Below, one piece after another: positions 5,225-15,286 of a stretch of DNA of 38,499 bases. This DNA is from a virus (lineage: Duplodnaviria > Heunggongvirae > Uroviricota > Caudoviricetes): IMG/VR virus record IMGVR_UViG_2711768065_000005. One strand, given 5' to 3'. Made by a program: the position numbers and the translations under genes. The stretch's first letter is position 1; every line of letters starts with the position of its first letter. The notes beneath the pieces were generated by a model. That model did no database searches and had not been told where the DNA came from. It worked only from the letters and a program-made list of their open reading frames with translations.

Positions 5225-5554
5225 CTATGCCACGACCTGTTCAAAATCTGCCGTTATGGTTACCCACAGCGCCCCCACGCTTGCCGACCATTTACGACAA
5301 ACCACCCTAATCGGTTTCCAGTCATAAGGTGGCGTCCACTGAAATGCGCGGACGCCACCGTGCCGTTCCAGAAAGGCTTTTAAAGATGGGTGTTCACATT
5401 TACGAACACGTATCGTCACGCTGTAAGTCGACAACTGGTTATTCAGTCCCGCCGCACGACGCTGTTCATAACCATCGCCCAGCTTCACTGTCACCACTTT
5501 CGGCTCTGATACCACATTCATATCCGGGCGCACTTTCCAGTGAAACGTCTCCAT
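5225..5554 (-). CDS. M: Minor tail protein M
   Basis: 109 aa, same length as lambda gpM; start overlaps H stop. Confidence 0.85.
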   Translation of the reverse strand: METFHWKVRPDMNVVSEPKVVTVKLGDGYEQRRAAGLNNQLSTYSVTIRVRKCEHPSLKAFLERHGGVRAFQWTPPYDWKPIRVVCRKWSASVGALWVTITADFEQVVA

Positions 5555-8500
5555 TACCGATATGCTCCACTTAACCGACCACCATCACGGGCCTGCTGTT
5601 GCATAAAGTCCGCTGCTGCTTTTTTCCCGAGGTCATAAACCACCTTCAGGGCAGCCGGACCTATCTGCCCGTTCGTGCCATCGTTATTGATCTCGATGTT
5701 GTACTGCGGGGCAAACATCGCCATACCTGAACCACCAATATCCGCCACAACCCCCAGCTTACCGTCAGCACCACGACGCAGAGGCAGAATGGCTTCAGGC
5801 CCAGCTTCCCCCATCACACCTGCACCTTTTGCAAAAGCAAAAAACGTCGGACGGTTAACCACCGTGCCACTGTAGCGACTCAAATCAGCAGACTGATAAA
5901 CACCACCATCAGCATTGGGCGTCACACTGGCAGTTGCTGCACTCCCCCAGCCAAACGCCGAACCAATCCCCTTAACTGCCTGCATCATGGACATCTGAGC
6001 CATGATTTTTGCCAGATCAGAAAGGAGCGAGGCGGTAAAAGATTTGAAGTTCAGTTTTCCGGTGGTACAGAATGTAGCCAGTGCATTACCTGCACTATTA
6101 AATGCCGCTGTAAGCATCTGCTCCGCAGTGCCTGCCGCATTATCCGCATCTGCCGTGAAATTCTGAAACGCCCGCATGGCACCGTTTTTCCAGTTACCCT
6201 GAGCAATTTCAAGCTGTTGCCAGTAACGGCGATTCTCATTCAGTTGCCTGTTCAGGCTCTCCGTCAGCGCCTGCTCGGCCTTTCTGTAGTCATCCGTGTT
6301 ATATGTCCCTTTCTGCTCACTATCCCGCCTCAACTGCTCCAGCTGTTGCTGGTATTTCTGGCGAAGGCTCAGTTGTACCTGATATCGCTGCCGCTGCTGA
6401 TCACCCATACCCACCGTGGCGATATCCAGGTCATGTTGCTGACGCTGAGCGCGCTCTTCTTCAGCCAGTTGACTGGTCAGCTGAATTGTTTTTTTCTTCA
6501 GATCGTTGAGTGCCGTCTGTTTCTGAAGCTCCTGCTGTTTTACATCCAGCAGCGTCAGTGCCTGAATCAGTTCATCTTTACGGGCCAGCACACTCTTTTC
6601 ATCTGCCGTCAGTTTTTTCCCGTCCAGATCGCTGATGCGCTGCTGCAGAGCCAGAAGCTGTTTATGCGCTTCTGTCATCTTTTCAGTGGCAATGCCTGCT
6701 GACTGTCTTGCAGCAGCAATCTGTCCTTCCACCTGTGCCTGTTGCTGGCTGTACTGCAGCAATAACCGGGTGGCCTCATCATTACGGGTTTCGCGTGTTT
6801 TTTTCTTACCGGATGCCAGGGCTTTCTCGTAACGTTCATTTTCACGTTGTATCGCCGCATCCCTGACAGCCTGATCGGCGTACTGCATGGCATTAATACG
6901 CGCAATTTCACGCTGATGTCGTGCTGCTTCCGTTTCATTCATCCGGTTCAGTGCAGCATTTTCAGCATTACGGCGTTTCTGTTGCTCCTGATAATTCCGC
7001 TCTGCCTGCTCTTTTGCATCCTGCAAATCCTTCTGGCGTTTTTTCTCCTGAAGATCGTTAAGACGCTGCTGATCGTATTCAACCTGAGAAGATGATGCCG
7101 TCCAGGGGAGTCTTTTCGCCCGCGACACTTTCTCCTGTAAAGCGGCAATCTGTTCATCCAGCGAGTCTTCACGACCAATATTCATGGCCGCATCCCAGAA
7201 ACGACTCCACAAATCAGACAGATACTTCAGCGTACTGCCAAGCGCATTGAGGTTATTATCAATATCCGCAGTACGCCGACCGGTTTCCTCTGCCAGTGCA
7301 GACATGGCTATCCGTGCAGCATCACTGGACCGCCCCTGCTCCCCAAGGACGCGTATCTGCTCAAGCTGAGTGGCAGTAAGAAAATGCAGCTCATTGTCCA
7401 GAGCCTTCGCGGCATTTACAGGATCATCCTTCAGCCGCTTAAACTGATTTATGGTATCGCTGACCGACTGGCCAACCGATCGCTCCATCTGTGCGGCAGC
7501 TCTCGCCACCATACCGATATCGTTTCCACGAAATGCACCACTCCCCACCACCTGAGCCAGCGCACCGGCTGCAGCATGTTGCGTGATACCATTCCCGGAA
7601 ATAGCACGACTGAGCGTCCACAGCTGCCCGGCAGTAACTCCGGCATAATGCCCCGTCAGCGACAACTGGCGGTTAAATTCTTCCCCCTCCTTCTGACCGT
7701 CATACCAGGCTTTACCCAGACCATAGACGGCCGCGGCAATACCGCCAATAACCCCGCCAAGCATCATGCCTTTCGGTGACATCAGTGTGTCTATCCATCC
7801 GGCACGGTTAGCCAGCGTTATCCCGGATCCCCTCAGCGCCCCTAAATTGCCGCGGGCCAGTTCACCTATCAGAACGCCTATCTCCTGGCGGGCTGCTGCA
7901 CTTTTCAGACCCAGCGAATGCGTGGCTTTTCCTGCCTGCTCCATTTTGCGGATATACACTTCTGCAGCACTGCTTACCCCCAGCTGGGCTGCCTTAGCAC
8001 GAAGCAACTCAGAAGATGAAAGATTCTGGCGGGTTGCCTGCTCTTTAAGCTGACGGATAAACGCCACTTTCTGTCGGGTAGCCTCTTCCTCAGCCTGTGT
8101 AAGAACACGGGTTTTCGCCGTAACCTCAGAAATCAGCGCCAGATAATCCTGCTGACCAATCCCGCCACTGTTTCTGGCCTGTCGGATCTGCTGCTGAATA
8201 CGCTGTAATTCCTGCAGCCCCGCACTGGCCTGTTTCACACTGTCAATCTGACGATAAAACGCAGCAGCCGCTTTATCCTGAGCCTCCGCCAGAGCCATGG
8301 CCTGCGCCTGTTCATCGCGCATTTTCTGGCTCAGCGCCTCCATGCGCTGGCGGGTTTTCTCCACCTCGCGGGCCATGCGTTCATGAGCCTGTGCGTTCTT
8401 CTCCACCGTCTGCGCATGGACGGAGGCGGCTGTTGCAGCCGAAGAAGCCGCCTGCGTTGTCTGCCGGGCGGCCTGAGTCTGACGCTCCATAAAACGCTGC

Positions 8501-8628
8501 ATACGGGCAGAAGACCGTTCTGCATCGCTGGCGGCACCATTCAGAAGGTTTTTGATACGGGGAATTTCATTTTTAAACTCTGCCGCATCAATCCCCAAAT
8601 CAATGACCAGGTTGGCTATCTGGTCCAT
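5554..8628 (-). CDS. H: Tail tape measure protein H
   Basis: Long Ala/Gln/Glu-rich coiled-coil protein; N-terminus MDQIANLVIDLGIDAAEF resembles lambda gpH MAEPVGDLVVDLSLDAARF; C-terminus ...INNDGTNGQIGPAALKVVYDL... matches lambda gpH. Longest ORF starts at 8658 (1034 aa); 8628 chosen by homology. Confidence 0.85.
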   Translation of the reverse strand: MDQIANLVIDLGIDAAEFKNEIPRIKNLLNGAASDAERSSARMQRFMERQTQAARQTTQAASSAATAASVHAQTVEKNAQAHERMAREVEKTRQRMEALSQKMRDEQAQAMALAEAQDKAAAAFYRQIDSVKQASAGLQELQRIQQQIRQARNSGGIGQQDYLALISEVTAKTRVLTQAEEEATRQKVAFIRQLKEQATRQNLSSSELLRAKAAQLGVSSAAEVYIRKMEQAGKATHSLGLKSAAARQEIGVLIGELARGNLGALRGSGITLANRAGWIDTLMSPKGMMLGGVIGGIAAAVYGLGKAWYDGQKEGEEFNRQLSLTGHYAGVTAGQLWTLSRAISGNGITQHAAAGALAQVVGSGAFRGNDIGMVARAAAQMERSVGQSVSDTINQFKRLKDDPVNAAKALDNELHFLTATQLEQIRVLGEQGRSSDAARIAMSALAEETGRRTADIDNNLNALGSTLKYLSDLWSRFWDAAMNIGREDSLDEQIAALQEKVSRAKRLPWTASSSQVEYDQQRLNDLQEKKRQKDLQDAKEQAERNYQEQQKRRNAENAALNRMNETEAARHQREIARINAMQYADQAVRDAAIQRENERYEKALASGKKKTRETRNDEATRLLLQYSQQQAQVEGQIAAARQSAGIATEKMTEAHKQLLALQQRISDLDGKKLTADEKSVLARKDELIQALTLLDVKQQELQKQTALNDLKKKTIQLTSQLAEEERAQRQQHDLDIATVGMGDQQRQRYQVQLSLRQKYQQQLEQLRRDSEQKGTYNTDDYRKAEQALTESLNRQLNENRRYWQQLEIAQGNWKNGAMRAFQNFTADADNAAGTAEQMLTAAFNSAGNALATFCTTGKLNFKSFTASLLSDLAKIMAQMSMMQAVKGIGSAFGWGSAATASVTPNADGGVYQSADLSRYSGTVVNRPTFFAFAKGAGVMGEAGPEAILPLRRGADGKLGVVADIGGSGMAMFAPQYNIEINNDGTNGQIGPAALKVVYDLGKKAAADFMQQQARDGGRLSGAYR

Positions 8629-8950
8629 AACGCACACCTCCGGAAATACCTTCTCCAAGATGCATCAGTTCTTCGTCCGTTCGCTCCGGTATCCCGTTCT
8701 CTTCCGGTAAAAGGCTGAAATCAGCCACCGCAGCATCACTGCTGCCGGACACCATTCTCACGATCAATGCCTTCAGCGAGGCAAACTGCGCATCCATCCA
8801 CACATCACTGAAGCTCTGCATCCGGAAATAATCGCCCCACTCACCAAGCTCAGTGGCCGACATTTCCGACAGCATCCGCCGCCAGTCTGCCCGCCGGAAC
8901 TCCCGGGCAAGCCGCATGACAAACTGCATTTCCCGCGTCAGGACTTTTCC
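8600..8950 (-). CDS. T: T-frame extension of G (G-T fusion made by programmed -1 frameshift)
   Basis: ORF in the -1 frame relative to G is open from the slippery heptamer G GAA AAG (8950..8944, minus strand) and continues ...VLTREMQFVMRLAREFRRADW... to a stop at 8600; G codons start at coordinates congruent to 0 mod 3, T codons at 1 mod 3, as a -1 shift on the minus strand requires. Confidence 0.7.
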   Translation of the reverse strand, partial: GKVLTREMQFVMRLAREFRRADWRRMLSEMSATELGEWGDYFRMQSFSDVWMDAQFASLKALIVRMVSGSSDAAVADFSLLPEENGIPERTDEELMHLGEGISGGVRYGPDSQPGH

Positions 8951-9324
8951 GGCGTCAGCGCCTCATGCTCATCATCCCCGGCATTATCAATGGCCCCCAT
9001 ACCGCTCAGCGACAGAACCATCTCCGCCCCCGCACCCAGGGCATCATACGACCATGTTGTAATAACGGATGCGCAAAGCGTCTCTACATCCTTAGACTGA
9101 TCCGCATTCCACAGTGAGCGGGAAACCAGCCAGGCATTGATATCCATCCCCATCCGCAGAAAAGCAATCTGTCGTTCAGCCTCCGGCAGTTCTCCCTCCC
9201 CGGCATCAAACTTTGCCGTTCGCTGCTGAACAAACGCCAGATATTCAATTCTCTGCAGCCCGGACAGCTCACTGAGCACCACGGACTGTTTTTCATAATT
9301 AAACGTGCCCTGTTTCAGAAACAT
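8938..9324 (-). CDS. G: Tail assembly chaperone G
   Basis: Product MFLKQGTFNYEKQSVVLSELSGLQRIEYLAFVQQR... resembles lambda gpG (MFLKTESFEHNGVTVTLSELSALQRIEHLALMKR...); ends ...ALTPEKS*. Confidence 0.8.
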   Translation of the reverse strand: MFLKQGTFNYEKQSVVLSELSGLQRIEYLAFVQQRTAKFDAGEGELPEAERQIAFLRMGMDINAWLVSRSLWNADQSKDVETLCASVITTWSYDALGAGAEMVLSLSGMGAIDNAGDDEHEALTPEKS

Positions 9325-9384
9325 CATGTTCTCCACCTGCAAAAAAGCCCCGGATAACCGGGGCAAATGATGAGTATCGTCCTG

Positions 9385-10134
9385 TTAACCTGCGGCGCTG
9401 ACAGCCACCGCAGCCACGGCCACAAAATCGCCGTCAGAAGTCATGCCCACAATGCTGACACTGCCCTGCTTCACGCCTTTCACCGTGGCCACAAGCCCGT
9501 TCAGGGTCACCGTGGCAGTCTGTGGATCTGTCGAATGTACACTGATCGCTTTGTCACTGGCTCCGTCAGGTTTTACTGTAAAGGTCAGCGTGGTGGTTGC
9601 TCCCACTTTTACACTGGCAGATGCTGGTGCCACCGTCAGCCCGGTAACGCTCACTGTTTCAGTGCCTTCCTCTGCCAGATGCGGACGCCCCACACCGCTG
9701 ATTTTCACTGTGCGGGTCATCACGTCTTTTGAGGCAATGGTTTTACCCAGTGAGCTCAGCCAGCCACGGAAAACATCAACAGTGCCGTTGGGATATTTGA
9801 TACGAAACGCGCAGACTTCACCGGAGTCGAACAACTGAACCAGTTTTTTCTGCCCGCTGTCACCCGGACGCCAGGCCAGCGTCGCCGAAGTATCACCGAC
9901 GGATTTCTGCCCCTGGGTTGTCGTTTTCCAGTCTGCATCTTCATCATCGAGATAAGTGTCATCTTCTGCATCAGCGGTCATTTCGCCAGGTTGCAGATCC
10001 TTCACCATCGCAAGACGCAGCCAGTCAGTGTCCGATAAAGGGTTCGCAAACGCATCGCCCTTGCCGGTGTACATCCAGAACGTCGTTCCCGCACCTTTCG
10101 TTTTTGCCAGTGGATTTGGTGTGGTCATTGCCAC
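9385..10134 (-). CDS. V: Major tail protein V with C-terminal Ig-like domain
   Basis: 249 aa; ...KGAGTTFWMYTGKGDAFANPLSDTDWLRLAMVKDLQPGEMTADAEDDTYLDDEDADW... closely parallels lambda gpV. Confidence 0.9.
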   Translation of the reverse strand: MAMTTPNPLAKTKGAGTTFWMYTGKGDAFANPLSDTDWLRLAMVKDLQPGEMTADAEDDTYLDDEDADWKTTTQGQKSVGDTSATLAWRPGDSGQKKLVQLFDSGEVCAFRIKYPNGTVDVFRGWLSSLGKTIASKDVMTRTVKISGVGRPHLAEEGTETVSVTGLTVAPASASVKVGATTTLTFTVKPDGASDKAISVHSTDPQTATVTLNGLVATVKGVKQGSVSIVGMTSDGDFVAVAAVAVSAAG

Positions 10135-10139
10135 CTCCT

Positions 10140-10553
10140 TTAATTCGTGTACGTGATCTGGTACGTGATTTCCGCCATCGCCCAGGTGGCTATCTCATTA
10201 TCACGTTGATAGTTAAAACCGAGAGGGATCAGGGTGTCGATGAGTCCGGAAAGTGCCGGTATATCATTCAGAGCCGGGAAAATGGTGCTCTCCATCCACA
10301 TATCCAGCTCTGAATCCGGTGCCTGTGCCCGGATGAAGACAGCAATATGCAGAACAGCCTGCCAGTCATCTTCATCCGTCATTTTTCCGGTGTACTGAGC
10401 ATCACTCAGCCACACCGCCACGGCAGGCAGTTCCTGCGCATCAATAAATGCCGGAAGCCCGTCAAAAAACGTGGCGCTGTCTCCACACTGTTCCCGAAGG
10501 CGTGCCAGTACGGCCTGGCGGATTTGTGTATGTCGGTTCATCGGGTCAGCCAT
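10140..10553 (-). CDS. U: Tail terminator protein U
   Basis: 137 aa; ...ATFFDGLPAFIDAQELPAVAVWLSDAQYTG...APDSELDMWMESTIFPALNDIPALS... resembles lambda gpU; start may be the internal Met at 10541. Confidence 0.8.
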   Translation of the reverse strand: MADPMNRHTQIRQAVLARLREQCGDSATFFDGLPAFIDAQELPAVAVWLSDAQYTGKMTDEDDWQAVLHIAVFIRAQAPDSELDMWMESTIFPALNDIPALSGLIDTLIPLGFNYQRDNEIATWAMAEITYQITYTN

Positions 10554-11116
10554 AACCTCAGTTGTTGTTTCAGTGCATACCCCAGCTGTTTCGGCATTTC
10601 CGCAGCAATAATGCGGTCGCGGGCATCTTCAAATGCCTGTGTCAGCGGTCCGGACAGCGGGACTTTCACCACATCAATGGGGTAACGATTTTTGCCATCA
10701 ATACGCCGCATCACATGCCAGCGACCATTCGCCAGTTGCTGAATAAACGCATCCCGGAAAAGATATTTACCCACCTTCAGCACACTGCCACGGTACTGCA
10801 GTTTTCCACCACGCCGGGCCAGTCTGACCCGGGCTGTCCCCAGCTTAATAGCGGGCAGATTGCCCCGGTTAACGCGGATCCTGGCCGTCATTTTTCCTGA
10901 CGGACTGGCTTTAAACACCCGGACACGCTGACGTACCAGTTTCAGGGGGATCCCTTTCACCTGGTTATCTCCCGCAACGGTATTCCCGGCAACCTGCCGG
11001 GTGGCGACCGAGACTGCTTTCTGTGCCACACGGTTTATCGCCCATGCGCTGGCCTGTGGCACCATACGGGTATCAAGGCTGTTCAGATTACGGATGGCAT
11101 TCTCAAGCCCCTTCAT
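10538..11116 (-). CDS. Z: Tail completion protein Z
   Basis: 192 aa, same length and position as lambda gpZ (between the head-tail joining genes and U). Confidence 0.8.
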   Translation of the reverse strand: MKGLENAIRNLNSLDTRMVPQASAWAINRVAQKAVSVATRQVAGNTVAGDNQVKGIPLKLVRQRVRVFKASPSGKMTARIRVNRGNLPAIKLGTARVRLARRGGKLQYRGSVLKVGKYLFRDAFIQQLANGRWHVMRRIDGKNRYPIDVVKVPLSGPLTQAFEDARDRIIAAEMPKQLGYALKQQLRLWLTR

Positions 11117-11805: not shown

Positions 11806-13764
11806 TTACGCCGTACATTTCACCAGACCGCGGTGATCAACTGGCGCGACACCGGCGTCAATACGCACTTTCGTTGTCACGCCATCCACACTGAAGCCCT
11901 CCATCTGATCAATATATGGCGTATCCACACCGTTGAGATAAGCCACTTCAATCGTATCGGAGCCTTTTGACGCAGCCAGGTAGAAGGTGGTCTGGCTGTT
12001 ATCATCAAGACGAGGCTCTGCAATAACGGTCGCAAAATCTTTCACCGGGTTAATAATACCGGCGTTAATGTCAGCCCCCTTGACACTTGAGGAGCGAATG
12101 ACCTGGTTAGCAACAGACTCCATCGCCGTCGGTACCAGTACGAACGCAGGACGAATATTCAGATGACGCTCCCCCTCTTTCTGAACGCGCATCAACTGGC
12201 GGGCTTTATCCAGCGATGCCACGTCCATTGCAGCGCTCTCCAGTACGTTTGCATGTTTCGCTTTATCGAACAGACTTACATTATCTGTGGAGATTTTCGG
12301 GTTAGACGTCAGAATGGCATAAACCAGATCGGCAATAGTGGATTTCGCCGCACGGCCCAACTTCATCGGGACATCGGTCAGCATATTCAGATCATCATTG
12401 ATAATGGCCTGACGGGTGATACTGAACAGCTCGCCATAGGTCGCCAGTGCAATAGTGGCCTGTTTATCTCCGGTGGTGACGTATTTATATTCCGCCCCTT
12501 CACGCACCTGACGCAGAGCACTGAAGCCCCCCATACCCACACGATGGGCAATTTTAAAATCAGACAACTGACCTGTCCGCGTCCACTGTTCATAGGTTTC
12601 AGGGGCATCTTCCCAGCCCTGCAGAATGGCTTTGTTCGCAACATCCAGCAGAATATTACCGAAGTCAGACGTACTGTGTGTGAACGCCGCACCGACCATC
12701 TGCATCGGGTTATAACTGGAAACCCCAATACCCCGTTCAGTCAGTGACATACGGGCATATTCACGCAGGGTCATCCCGTTGTAGACATTATCACGTTCGG
12801 TTTTTTCAAATCCGGCACGCGCCATCAGCGCCTGGCGGATCCCGTCCCCCACAAAATTACCGTTACCGGCATAAATATGAGCCGGGGTATTTTTATTGGA
12901 TGGCGTGGACTCGCGCCCCATCTCGTTCAACAGCTTTTCGCGGGCCTGCTCCAGCGAACATTCAGGATCGGCAAGACACTGAGCCTGCAGCGTCTGATAA
13001 CGCCCGCCAAACATGGCAAACAGATCATTAATACCGTTTACACGCGCTTTTTGCTCTGCCAGTACCTGCGCACGGATGCTGTTTTCATCCACCACGGGTG
13101 CTGCTGCCTGCACTGGCGTCCGGGAGGCTTCAGGTTCATTATCCTGTACGCGTGGAGCACTGTTGCGTGGCGGAGTAATCATGTTTCGAATGGATTCCGG
13201 CATCTTTTTAAATTCCTCTGTACGTTTTGACTGAATACATGCCATTGCCTTAACGGCTGGCGTTACCTGATCAGCAAATCCATGTGCCAGACATTCGGCA
13301 CCGGACATCCAGGTCTCATCCGCCAGCATGGCAGCAATTTCATCGGTGGTTTTCCCGGTTTTCTGTGCATAAGCGGGTAACAGAACCGCCTCAACTTTAT
13401 CGAGCAGGTCGGCATAGGTGCGCATGTCCTCCGCATCACCGCCCGTAAAGCCAAATGGTTTATGAATCATCATGAAGGTGTTTTCCGGCATAATGACCGG
13501 GTTTCCCACCATCGCAATGACCGACGCCATTGATGCCGCCACACCGTCGACATAAACGGTAATGGACGCACCATGTGTTTTCAGCGCATTAAAAATGGCG
13601 ATGCCTTCAAAGACATCGCCACCCGGTGAATTGATATGGAGATTAATGTGGGTGATATCGCCCAGTGCATTCAGATCACTGATAAACTGCTTCGCTGTAA
13701 CACCCCAGAAACCAATCTCGTCATAAATATAAATATCCGCGTCACTCTGGTGACCAGCCTGCAT
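11806..13764 (-). CDS. Prohead protease (ClpP/S49-like) fused to major capsid protein
   Basis: About 650 aa; N-terminal ...IYIYDEIGFWGVTAKQFISDLNALGDITHINLHINSPGGDVFEGIAIFNALKTH... is a ClpP-type serine protease fold; long C-terminal capsid-like domain. Start set at the first Met after the portal stop (longest ORF from 14025 overlaps portal). Confidence 0.75.
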   Translation of the reverse strand: MQAGHQSDADIYIYDEIGFWGVTAKQFISDLNALGDITHINLHINSPGGDVFEGIAIFNALKTHGASITVYVDGVAASMASVIAMVGNPVIMPENTFMMIHKPFGFTGGDAEDMRTYADLLDKVEAVLLPAYAQKTGKTTDEIAAMLADETWMSGAECLAHGFADQVTPAVKAMACIQSKRTEEFKKMPESIRNMITPPRNSAPRVQDNEPEASRTPVQAAAPVVDENSIRAQVLAEQKARVNGINDLFAMFGGRYQTLQAQCLADPECSLEQAREKLLNEMGRESTPSNKNTPAHIYAGNGNFVGDGIRQALMARAGFEKTERDNVYNGMTLREYARMSLTERGIGVSSYNPMQMVGAAFTHSTSDFGNILLDVANKAILQGWEDAPETYEQWTRTGQLSDFKIAHRVGMGGFSALRQVREGAEYKYVTTGDKQATIALATYGELFSITRQAIINDDLNMLTDVPMKLGRAAKSTIADLVYAILTSNPKISTDNVSLFDKAKHANVLESAAMDVASLDKARQLMRVQKEGERHLNIRPAFVLVPTAMESVANQVIRSSSVKGADINAGIINPVKDFATVIAEPRLDDNSQTTFYLAASKGSDTIEVAYLNGVDTPYIDQMEGFSVDGVTTKVRIDAGVAPVDHRGLVKCTA

Positions 13765-13810
13765 CCTGAACCAGGAATTATTCTTCGGACTGGTCGTCGG
13801 TGTACTGCGG

Positions 13811-15286
13811 CTACTGTCGTTTCGTTGCGGCACTGCTGCCTCCTTTATCACTGGCCGGATCGGTATCAAATACCAGGTCCAGCTTGCGGTTTTCATCAAT
13901 TTCGGCCTTGCGCCGACGTTTGACATCATCCGGATTACGACCACCTGCACGTACCCAGTCTGATTCTGTCGCCGCTCCACCACGAATCTGGATTTTCCAG
14001 GCCTCAGCCTCCTTAACAGGGTCAATCCACGGCATCACCGGTCCGGAATACACCGCGGTATACAGTGAAGAACGGTCAAGATCGCGGGGTAGCCTGATAA
14101 CACCGGATGCCACAGCCTGTTTCAGCCAGGCACGATACATCGGGCGGGTGACGGCACCAATAAACCAGTCCTGCAGGATCAGGTAGCCATCAGTGGATTC
14201 AACCAGCTCCTGACGCTGGGCGCTGTAAGTGCCGTTATAGTTGCGCGCTGTACTGGAAAAACTCAGACGACTGCCCGCCGCCACGGCACGCAACTGAGCA
14301 TTACGAAAAGTTTCAAGGTTAGGATTTGGGCGATCCGACTTCACCATTCCGATTTCTTCGCCGGGTTTCAGATCGTCGTAAATAATGCCTGGCTGAATGG
14401 TAAGCTCGCGTTCATTCTCCTTGCTGTCATTACCATCCGTTTCATAGCTCTGTCCGTCGCCTTTGCGGATGTACATCCCCAGAGCAGCGGCGACCCTTGC
14501 TGCAGTCAGCTCAGAATCTTCATACTCTTTCAGGGCGCTGAGGCGGATCAGCACACCGGACAATAAAGACGTCCCGCGCATCTGGTGCAGACGGCGAACA
14601 AATTTAAGATGCAGCATTCGCTCTGCATCCACTTCTTTGGTTTCCATCTGCCGTCCGGATACAGGACGACTTTTATACACCAGATATTTTTCGGGACGCC
14701 CCCAGTCATCAACAAACACGCCCTGATTCAGCCTGTTGCTCTCATCACTGGTCATGGGAATAAAGTCCGGCTCGAGCGCCTCCAGCCAGAAATGAACACC
14801 GGCAGAAGGCGTCAGGCTGTTTATGCGCCCGGAAACCATCTGGGCAAACACCTCACCATCGCGCAGCCAGGTACGAAGCATCAGACGTTCCAGCATCGGA
14901 CGGGTAAACTGCCCGGTGACTTCCGGGCTGACAGACCATTCACTCCATCGGGTGCGAATCTCCGCAGCCAGGTCACGGGCAATGGCCCCATTGCGTAATA
15001 CCGGATGTGGCTCGACAATAATCCCGTTTTTCCCCACCACCCGTTCTTCCAGCTTGTCAAATACACCAATAACCAGATCGTGGTTGTTATCAAGGTAACG
15101 GGCCTGCTCACGTAACGACACGGCCCCGTACTGGCTTAACTGGTCGGCAGTTCGGTTCTCCCGTCGGGCTTTGTGTGTCCGCGTCGTTTTTACGGCCTCA
15201 TAAGCCTGGATCACCGCACGGGAACGCAGCCTTGCCGCTTTCCATCCTGGTGAAAAAACGCCAATCACATCATCAAGAATTGCCAT
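13811..15286 (-). CDS. Portal protein (lambda-type)
   Basis: About 490 aa; size and position between gpW-like and protease genes; start ATG overlaps the W stop (ATGA). Confidence 0.8.
   Translation of the reverse strand: MAILDDVIGVFSPGWKAARLRSRAVIQAYEAVKTTRTHKARRENRTADQLSQYGAVSLREQARYLDNNHDLVIGVFDKLEERVVGKNGIIVEPHPVLRNGAIARDLAAEIRTRWSEWSVSPEVTGQFTRPMLERLMLRTWLRDGEVFAQMVSGRINSLTPSAGVHFWLEALEPDFIPMTSDESNRLNQGVFVDDWGRPEKYLVYKSRPVSGRQMETKEVDAERMLHLKFVRRLHQMRGTSLLSGVLIRLSALKEYEDSELTAARVAAALGMYIRKGDGQSYETDGNDSKENERELTIQPGIIYDDLKPGEEIGMVKSDRPNPNLETFRNAQLRAVAAGSRLSFSSTARNYNGTYSAQRQELVESTDGYLILQDWFIGAVTRPMYRAWLKQAVASGVIRLPRDLDRSSLYTAVYSGPVMPWIDPVKEAEAWKIQIRGGAATESDWVRAGGRNPDDVKRRRKAEIDENRKLDLVFDTDPASDKGGSSAATKRQ

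Follow-up and report, generated by a model that had tools for sequence, protein, structure and literature searches.

A programmed −1 frameshift of the lambda type very probably joins the tail genes G and T in the window, by which we mean the whole 38,499-nucleotide stretch analyzed here (IMG/VR virus record IMGVR_UViG_2711768065_000005, Caudoviricetes). A small fraction of the ribosomes translating G would slip back one nucleotide on the heptamer G GAA AAG (8944..8950, minus strand), giving a G-T fusion of 242 aa. Judged by sequence comparison, this appears to be an ordinary, conserved lambda-type G/G-T frameshift on a known variant heptamer. The initial annotation had proposed a shift at this junction, and comparative data now support it: the heptamer is invariant and lies at the position homologous to lambda's site, the T frame is under constraint, and T has no conserved start.

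The junction belongs to a lambda-like tail block on the minus strand, ordered Z-U-V-G-T-H-M-L by Pfam assignment (Z, 11116..10538; U, 10553..10140). As in lambda, two overlapping ORFs lie between the tail tube gene V (9385..10134, minus strand; C-terminal Ig-like domain; Phage_TTP_12, E 9e-67; Big_2, E 1.9e-11) and the tape measure gene H (5554..8628, minus strand; 1024 aa from ATG 8628, a start shared with the mEp460 annotation; TMP_2, TMP_4, and Tape_meas_lam_C). Pfam places the upstream ORF in the gpG chaperone family and finds a gpT domain in the downstream one. Gene G, the tail assembly chaperone (8938..9327, minus strand; Phage_TAC_2, E 1.8e-39), encodes 129 aa from ATG 9327, or 128 aa from ATG 9324, and stops at TGA 8940..8938; these limits are the ones given in the mEp460, Ayreon, and RefSeq annotations. 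The T-frame part of the predicted fusion (8600..8944, minus strand; Phage_tail_T, E 4.6e-15) runs from GTC 8944..8942 onward for 114 aa to the stop at 8602..8600. On translation, the predicted product is join(9327..8944, 8944..8600), reading ...ALTPEK-VLTREMQF... across the junction.

Other features of this part of the genome can be recorded in their own right. The start of H, ATG 8628, lies 29 nt inside the end of T (8600..8628, minus strand) in a different frame, and relatives are annotated likewise; translation of G-T and of H therefore overlaps. Between V and G, which stand 57 nt apart, lies a GC-rich hairpin (9364..9339, minus strand), GCCCCGGTTATCCGGGGC, followed by TTTTTT. The mEp460 and Ayreon annotations give it as a rho-independent terminator, and transcription of G, T, and H could drop at this point relative to that of V; the part of lambda's record that was compared has no such feature. 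In a single 739-aa ORF (11806..14025, minus strand), residues 95-255 form a Clp protease domain (E 3.3e-36) and residues 441-736 a phage capsid domain (Phage_capsid_4, E 1.3e-54), making this a fused prohead protease-major capsid gene where lambda has separate C and E.

The T frame is −1 relative to G; past a TGA at 8965..8963 it stays open from 8962 (GADAGKVLTREMQF...) until it ends at 8602..8600. The G/T overlap (8938..8962, minus strand) is bounded by that TGA and by the stop of G; it amounts to 8 codons and is the sole stretch in which a −1 step can join the two frames. The frame map bears out the earlier reading that T is open from the last codons of G. In the G frame, the 3′ end of the gene (reverse complement of 8967..8938) reads CAT GAG GCG CTG ACG CCG GAA AAG TCC TGA. 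Within the overlap, G GAA AAG is the single slippery element, exactly at the minus-strand coordinates 8950..8944 first assigned to it, and it does differ by one base from lambda's G GGA AAG. Its 0-frame codons, GAA (8949..8947) and AAG (8946..8944), become GGA AAA in the −1 frame. The remainder of the overlap (GAG GCG CTG ACG CC) contains no repeated bases that would permit re-pairing. As a whole, the heptamer departs from the canonical X XXY YYZ form, since the first post-shift triplet is GGA and not a homopolymer; the A AAG half is canonical, and it stands in frame (GAA AAG in the G frame), where it is decoded by tRNA-Lys. Relatives with G GCA AAA or C GAA AAG break the X XXY YYZ pattern too.

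Heptamers of this sequence are not rare as such, with 11 copies in the window against 6.7 expected. An in-frame A_AAG accounts for 0.33% of codons in the window ORFs, which corresponds to a chance of ~2.6% in a given 8-codon stretch. This expectation, taken with conservation across lineages, places the heptamer at the G/T junction beyond what chance would be expected to give, and the comparative argument is the stronger of the two.

The comparative argument draws on ~450 related loci, taken from phage records and from collections of viral, genome, and metagenome sequences; within this set, a genome contig scan gave 11 loci, and a metagenome scan gave mostly copies identical to the window. At least 20 lineages, with G identities of 42-100%, carry G GAA AAG unchanged, despite its location inside a hypervariable linker. 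In the 16 window-type lineages, where G identity to the window protein spans 42-100%, the gene always ends with NNG GAA AAG, one sense codon (TCC, TCA, CCC, TTC, TAT, or CCT), and a stop (TGA, TAA, or TAG). At the protein level, P-E-K alone is conserved in the G C-terminus of this type, and the ~20 residues before it are hypervariable. Codon choice is fixed as well: Lys is always AAG, though this is the rarer codon (27% of Lys codons in the window structural genes), and Glu is always GAA, against 52% of Glu codons in the same genes.

Such constancy might merely reflect recent common descent of a decayed site, carried in mostly defective prophages that make little or no G-T. Most copies are indeed prophages: of 5426 complete E. 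coli genomes, 1847 (34%) contain one with at least 95% identity. In vitro, moreover, G GAA AAG shifts poorly (PMC6924986). We nevertheless consider decay extremely unlikely. The 841-bp G/T region is 98-99.8% identical to that of Escherichia phages Tritos, mEp460, cdtI, Ayreon, and the PhiR series, so that the same sequence is present in phages deposited as isolates with a named host strain; the heptamer is also retained between lineages that differ in their flanking codons and share only 42-66% identity in G, which is not the mark of recent descent.

Some database proteins related to the window G have unusual structures. Two of them (P0026 and P0044) are in-frame G-T “fusions” of 215 and 212 aa; in P0044, ...WSYDA is followed by GKVLTREM, so that its seam coincides exactly with the heptamer as read in the −1 frame. 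As natural in-frame fusions, both were rejected; each lacks the end of G through an internal deletion and is uninformative on the shift. Another, P0001, is a 182-aa G with an internal duplication. These variants may stem from genuine defective prophages or from assembly artefacts.

The position of the shift was derived from sequence, and the overlap spans 8962..8938, which leaves some room for a fusion produced by a different event, either a shift elsewhere in these 8 codons or RNA polymerase slippage on the A4 run. We judge this very unlikely. The rest of the overlap, besides having no repeats for re-pairing, varies between lineages, unlike the constant heptamer, and in one relative (L092) the overlap is down to 5 codons, TGATTCGCCGGAAAAGTCCTGA, and still includes the heptamer, so that no alternative shift position is available there. 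Productive transcriptional slippage needs runs of about 8-9 bases or more; a run of only 4 A is far shorter, and this candidate was rejected.

Selection on the T frame extends back to the heptamer. The T-frame Leu two codons past it is encoded by CTG, TTA, CTA, CTT, or CTC depending on lineage, a synonymous variation that argues for protein-level selection upstream of any ATG, and the stretch V-L-x-x-E, read in the T frame from the heptamer up to the ATG, keeps its protein sequence. GenBank and RefSeq records of this module present T as a separate CDS from ATG 8929 (8927..8929, minus strand), and none joins G and T. This public start is probably not genuine. It is not conserved among lineages: others have I, L, Q, V, or R at the aligned residue, and lambda lacks a start at this place, which makes independent initiation of T unlikely. 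T lies in the −1 frame, open over the end of G and without a conserved start of its own, as is typical of the lambda arrangement.

If T were instead made as a free protein from ATG 8929, for example by termination-reinitiation, a G-T fusion would be unnecessary. The public records agree with such a scheme, and coupling is physically possible with the ATG 8 nt past the stop of G. It remains quite unlikely in our estimation, given an ATG that changes between lineages and codons ahead of it that are kept for their protein sequence. A free T also gives no reason for heptamer invariance at synonymous sites, and in lambda T is expressed as a G-T fusion (Atkins et al. 2016, PMC5009743).

The frameshift reading gains further from the alignment of T-frame products, which opens with an invariant, heptamer-encoded G1 K2 in all lineages, lambda included. 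Read in the −1 frame from the heptamer, the product is GKVLTREMQFVMRLAREF in the window, GKVFDGELSFALKLAREM in lambda, and GKALA... in phi80, the respective beginnings being GKVL, GKVF, and GKAL. The invariant G-K at the start of the T frame indicates that the site is the same as lambda's. By this alignment, the window site is lambda's G GGA AAG with one base changed, homologous to a site that has been mapped experimentally (Levin, Hendrix and Casjens 1993; Xu, Hendrix and Duda 2004, 2013, 2014; as summarized in PMC5009743).

Across the wider family, the heptamer at homologous junctions takes several forms. G GGA AAG is found in lambda, PhiR12_5, an Stx2a phage, and Serratia/Symbiopectobacterium prophages; A AAA AAG in Stx1a and Stx2d phages and another Stx2a phage; and C CCA AAA in Vibrio phage HY01. 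G GAA AAG is shared by the window type, phi80, mEp043, mEp237, Klebsiella phage Kp4865-4, and Fels-1. Seven lineages have G GCA AAA with TAG directly after, two loci (L291 and L370) have G GAA AAA with TAG directly after, and the pair L346/L347 has C GAA AAG with TAA directly after. The element constant over all homologous junctions is the lysine tetramer A AAR, while P-site re-pairing ranges from perfect to essentially none. Constancy of A AAR alongside a varying P-site codon suggests that, in this family, the signal centers on the lysine slip; the P-site G:U pair is chemically correct but may not be decisive.

Two of these groups invite separate comment. In a clade of viral and metagenome contigs (L285-L293 and L365-L370), whose T proteins are 68-100% identical to that of locus L100, the junction reads ...CTG GCA AAA TAG, and the G stop directly follows the lysine codon (G GCA AAA TAG or G GAA AAA TAG). 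During a −1 shift here, a stop codon would occupy the A site and the P site would re-pair hardly at all, a different form of the same signal. In the IMG/VR contigs L346/L347, the junction is CCG GCC GAA AAG TAA; C precedes GAA, the P-site tRNA cannot re-pair at position 1 or 2, and what remains is the A AAG tetramer beside the stop.

In the mechanism we propose, ribosomes on G would slip back one nucleotide at 8950..8944 and go on in the T frame, and the remaining ribosomes would stop two codons on, releasing the 129-aa G. G and G-T would then act as a joint tail assembly chaperone, as in lambda, with the G part binding H and the T part recruiting V. The slip would most likely be driven mainly by the one tRNA-Lys that E. 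coli has, which matches AAA better than the AAG it leaves. In the P site, tRNA-Glu, going from GAA to GGA, would keep its pairing at positions 1 and 3 with a G:U at position 2, and either tRNA-Lys alone or both tRNAs may slip.

Published work bears on each of these steps. The initial annotation had described the A-site change from AAG to AAA as standard and the P-site change from GAA to GGA as dependent on G:U, a logic in agreement with Peng et al. 2019 (PMC6924986), in which tRNA-Lys pairs with both AAG and AAA and tRNA-Glu has a second-position mismatch on GGA. In the reconstituted E. coli system of that study, G GAA AAG (as AUG GAA AAG) was less slippery than G GGA AAG, and whatever the EF-G concentration it yielded mainly 0-frame product. 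The sole tRNA-Lys of E. coli forms a better pair with AAA than with AAG, and A_AAG is the most shift-prone tetramer in this organism; even so, without a stimulator it barely exceeds background in vivo (0.147% versus 0.112%), against 5.6% with the IS3 pseudoknot (Sharma 2014, PMC4066793). Energetically, replacement of A.U by G.U carries a modest penalty of about 5 kJ/mol at P-site position 1, and the change from AAG to AAA gains about 2.9 kJ/mol; these figures come from a study whose scope did not extend to second-position mismatches (Bock et al. 2019, PMC6787027). With this literature in hand, a low-efficiency shift by tRNA-Lys, partly helped by the P-site G:U, is plausible. In lambda, the ratio of G to G-T is ~30:1, so a low level of shifting suffices (Atkins et al. 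2016, PMC5009743). Together with the lack of convincing downstream structure described below, the in vitro result and the near-background activity of A_AAG imply that efficiency in the window could be well below lambda's; the suggestion in the initial annotation that the two may differ is a reasonable one.

The region downstream of the heptamer was folded over 100 nt, screened with hairpin rules modeled on those of Sharma, and folded as a consensus over 13 lineages; no convincing stimulatory structure emerged. The 100 nt past the heptamer fold no better than shuffles (z = −0.96); the consensus fold reaches −9.2 kcal/mol and begins 17 nt downstream; and no hairpin or pseudoknot of the dnaX/IS911 type, starting 4-10 nt after the motif, is supported. 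Upstream, a tentative candidate stimulator is the Shine-Dalgarno (SD)-like GAGG at 8961..8964 (minus strand), 10 nt before the heptamer with a spacing of 11. [quoted passage not shown]

An SD-like motif lies 6-17 nt upstream in 13 of the 16 window-type lineages, with spacings clustered at 11-14. Codon shuffles give an expectation of ~0.33 per sequence, for a nominal P of ~5e-5 that is uncorrected for shared ancestry. Where the Glu five codons before the heptamer GAA is present, it is always GAG, and the third base of the Ala codon that follows varies. The motif is absent from all four phi80-type G GAA AAG lineages (phi80, mEp043, mEp237, and Kp4865-4), and it is present in 4 of 10 other non-canonical types and in one of the eight canonical representatives scored. 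A general rule, that a non-canonical heptamer always comes with an SD-like motif, had at first looked promising (14/17 non-canonical versus 0/4 canonical) and was discarded when it failed on the phi80 type (0/4) and on the other types (4/10). Tentatively, then, the SD-like element would be a feature limited to the window's lineage type. For that type (…P-E-K-x-stop), we hold it possible but doubtful that the weak heptamer is aided by GAGG, GGAG, or AGGA 10-13 nt upstream, in a dnaX-like manner, with heptamer and SD together setting the ratio of G to G-T.

Variation within the window's own relatives touches this element directly. L039, L072, and ~30 related loci carry, at the position homologous to 8959..8961, a common GCG to GTG allele (Ala to Val) directly after GAGG. 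The allele turns GAGG into GAGGUG and makes the predicted anti-SD pairing stronger, from about −5.6 to −9.2 kcal/mol; it could act as a natural test of the SD idea. Should that idea prove true, the family would provide a natural allelic series for measuring how far P-site re-pairing matters: A AAR is preceded by GGG, GGA, GGC, CGA, AAA, or CCC, an SD is present or absent, and the stop stands at +0, +1, or +5 codons. Independently of the SD, junctions in which the P-site codon varies and A AAR is kept form a ready-made set for testing the contributions of the P and A sites.

The heptamer has precedent at the level of annotation. In phi80 (FN582354.1), a misc_feature at 10194..10200 is labeled “slippery sequence for -1 translational frameshift,” its sequence, which we checked, is GGAAAAG, and the record (phi80 gene 14/G-T) also carries a joined gpG-T CDS. 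That annotation, along with the non-XXXYYYZ classes described in the PRFect paper (PMC10885494), means that the variant is already recognized at this level. In the literature searched, no paper mentioned G GAA AAG or GGAAAAG as a phage slip site. What is new is limited to the observation that the very common mEp460/cdtI/Tritos-type module uses this heptamer without a matching annotation. Since this module, carried by several isolated phages and by roughly one complete E. coli genome in three, is everywhere annotated as two genes, the 242-aa G-T is absent from protein databases. A heptamer that served as the “less slippery” comparison in a kinetic study is conserved in nature where a shift is required, and its conservation at a shifting site implies that searches restricted to X XXY YYZ will miss genuine sites. 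None of these results alters how tail assembly or frameshifting is currently understood.

Among known systems, the “twofour” and “fivetwo” classes of PRFect resemble the window site in being non-XXXYYYZ motifs among curated phage frameshifts, and by the name of the class GGAAAA would fit “twofour”; that paper also discusses re-pairing of GAA on GGA through G:U, in GGGGGAA (PMC10885494). The examples given there differ in coming mainly from actinobacteriophages and in placing GAA second in the motif, where the window site has it first. IS3-family A_AAG sites and E. coli dnaX share with the window the reliance on a single tRNA-Lys moving from AAG to AAA, and the upstream SD-like element here stands at a dnaX-like spacing; unlike the window, where no such structure is supported, those systems have strong downstream hairpins or pseudoknots, and the heptamer of dnaX is fully slippery, A AAA AAG (PMC4066793).

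Closer at hand, phi80 has the identical heptamer at the homologous G/T junction, known here from its annotation as a slip site, and mEp043, mEp237, and Klebsiella phage Kp4865-4 share phi80's GGAAAAG. The context differs: the phi80 type reads GCG GAA AAG CCC TTG... where the window reads CCG GAA AAG TCC TGA; the stop of G lies five codons downstream in phi80, mEp043, and mEp237 and one in Kp4865-4; and the phi80 type has no SD-like motif at 6-17 nt upstream, whereas the window has GAGG at 10 nt. Lambda, for its part, differs from the window in the third base of the heptamer (G in G GGA AAG, A in G GAA AAG), in a P-site codon for Gly in place of a Glu codon that re-pairs with a second-position G:U, in a G that stops five codons past the heptamer and not one, and in a G protein with which the window's is only ~33-36% identical. 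The two nevertheless have in common the gene order V-G-T-H, the Pfam families, a −1 T frame with no conserved start, the absence of convincing structure downstream of the site, and the placement of that site at the homologous position.
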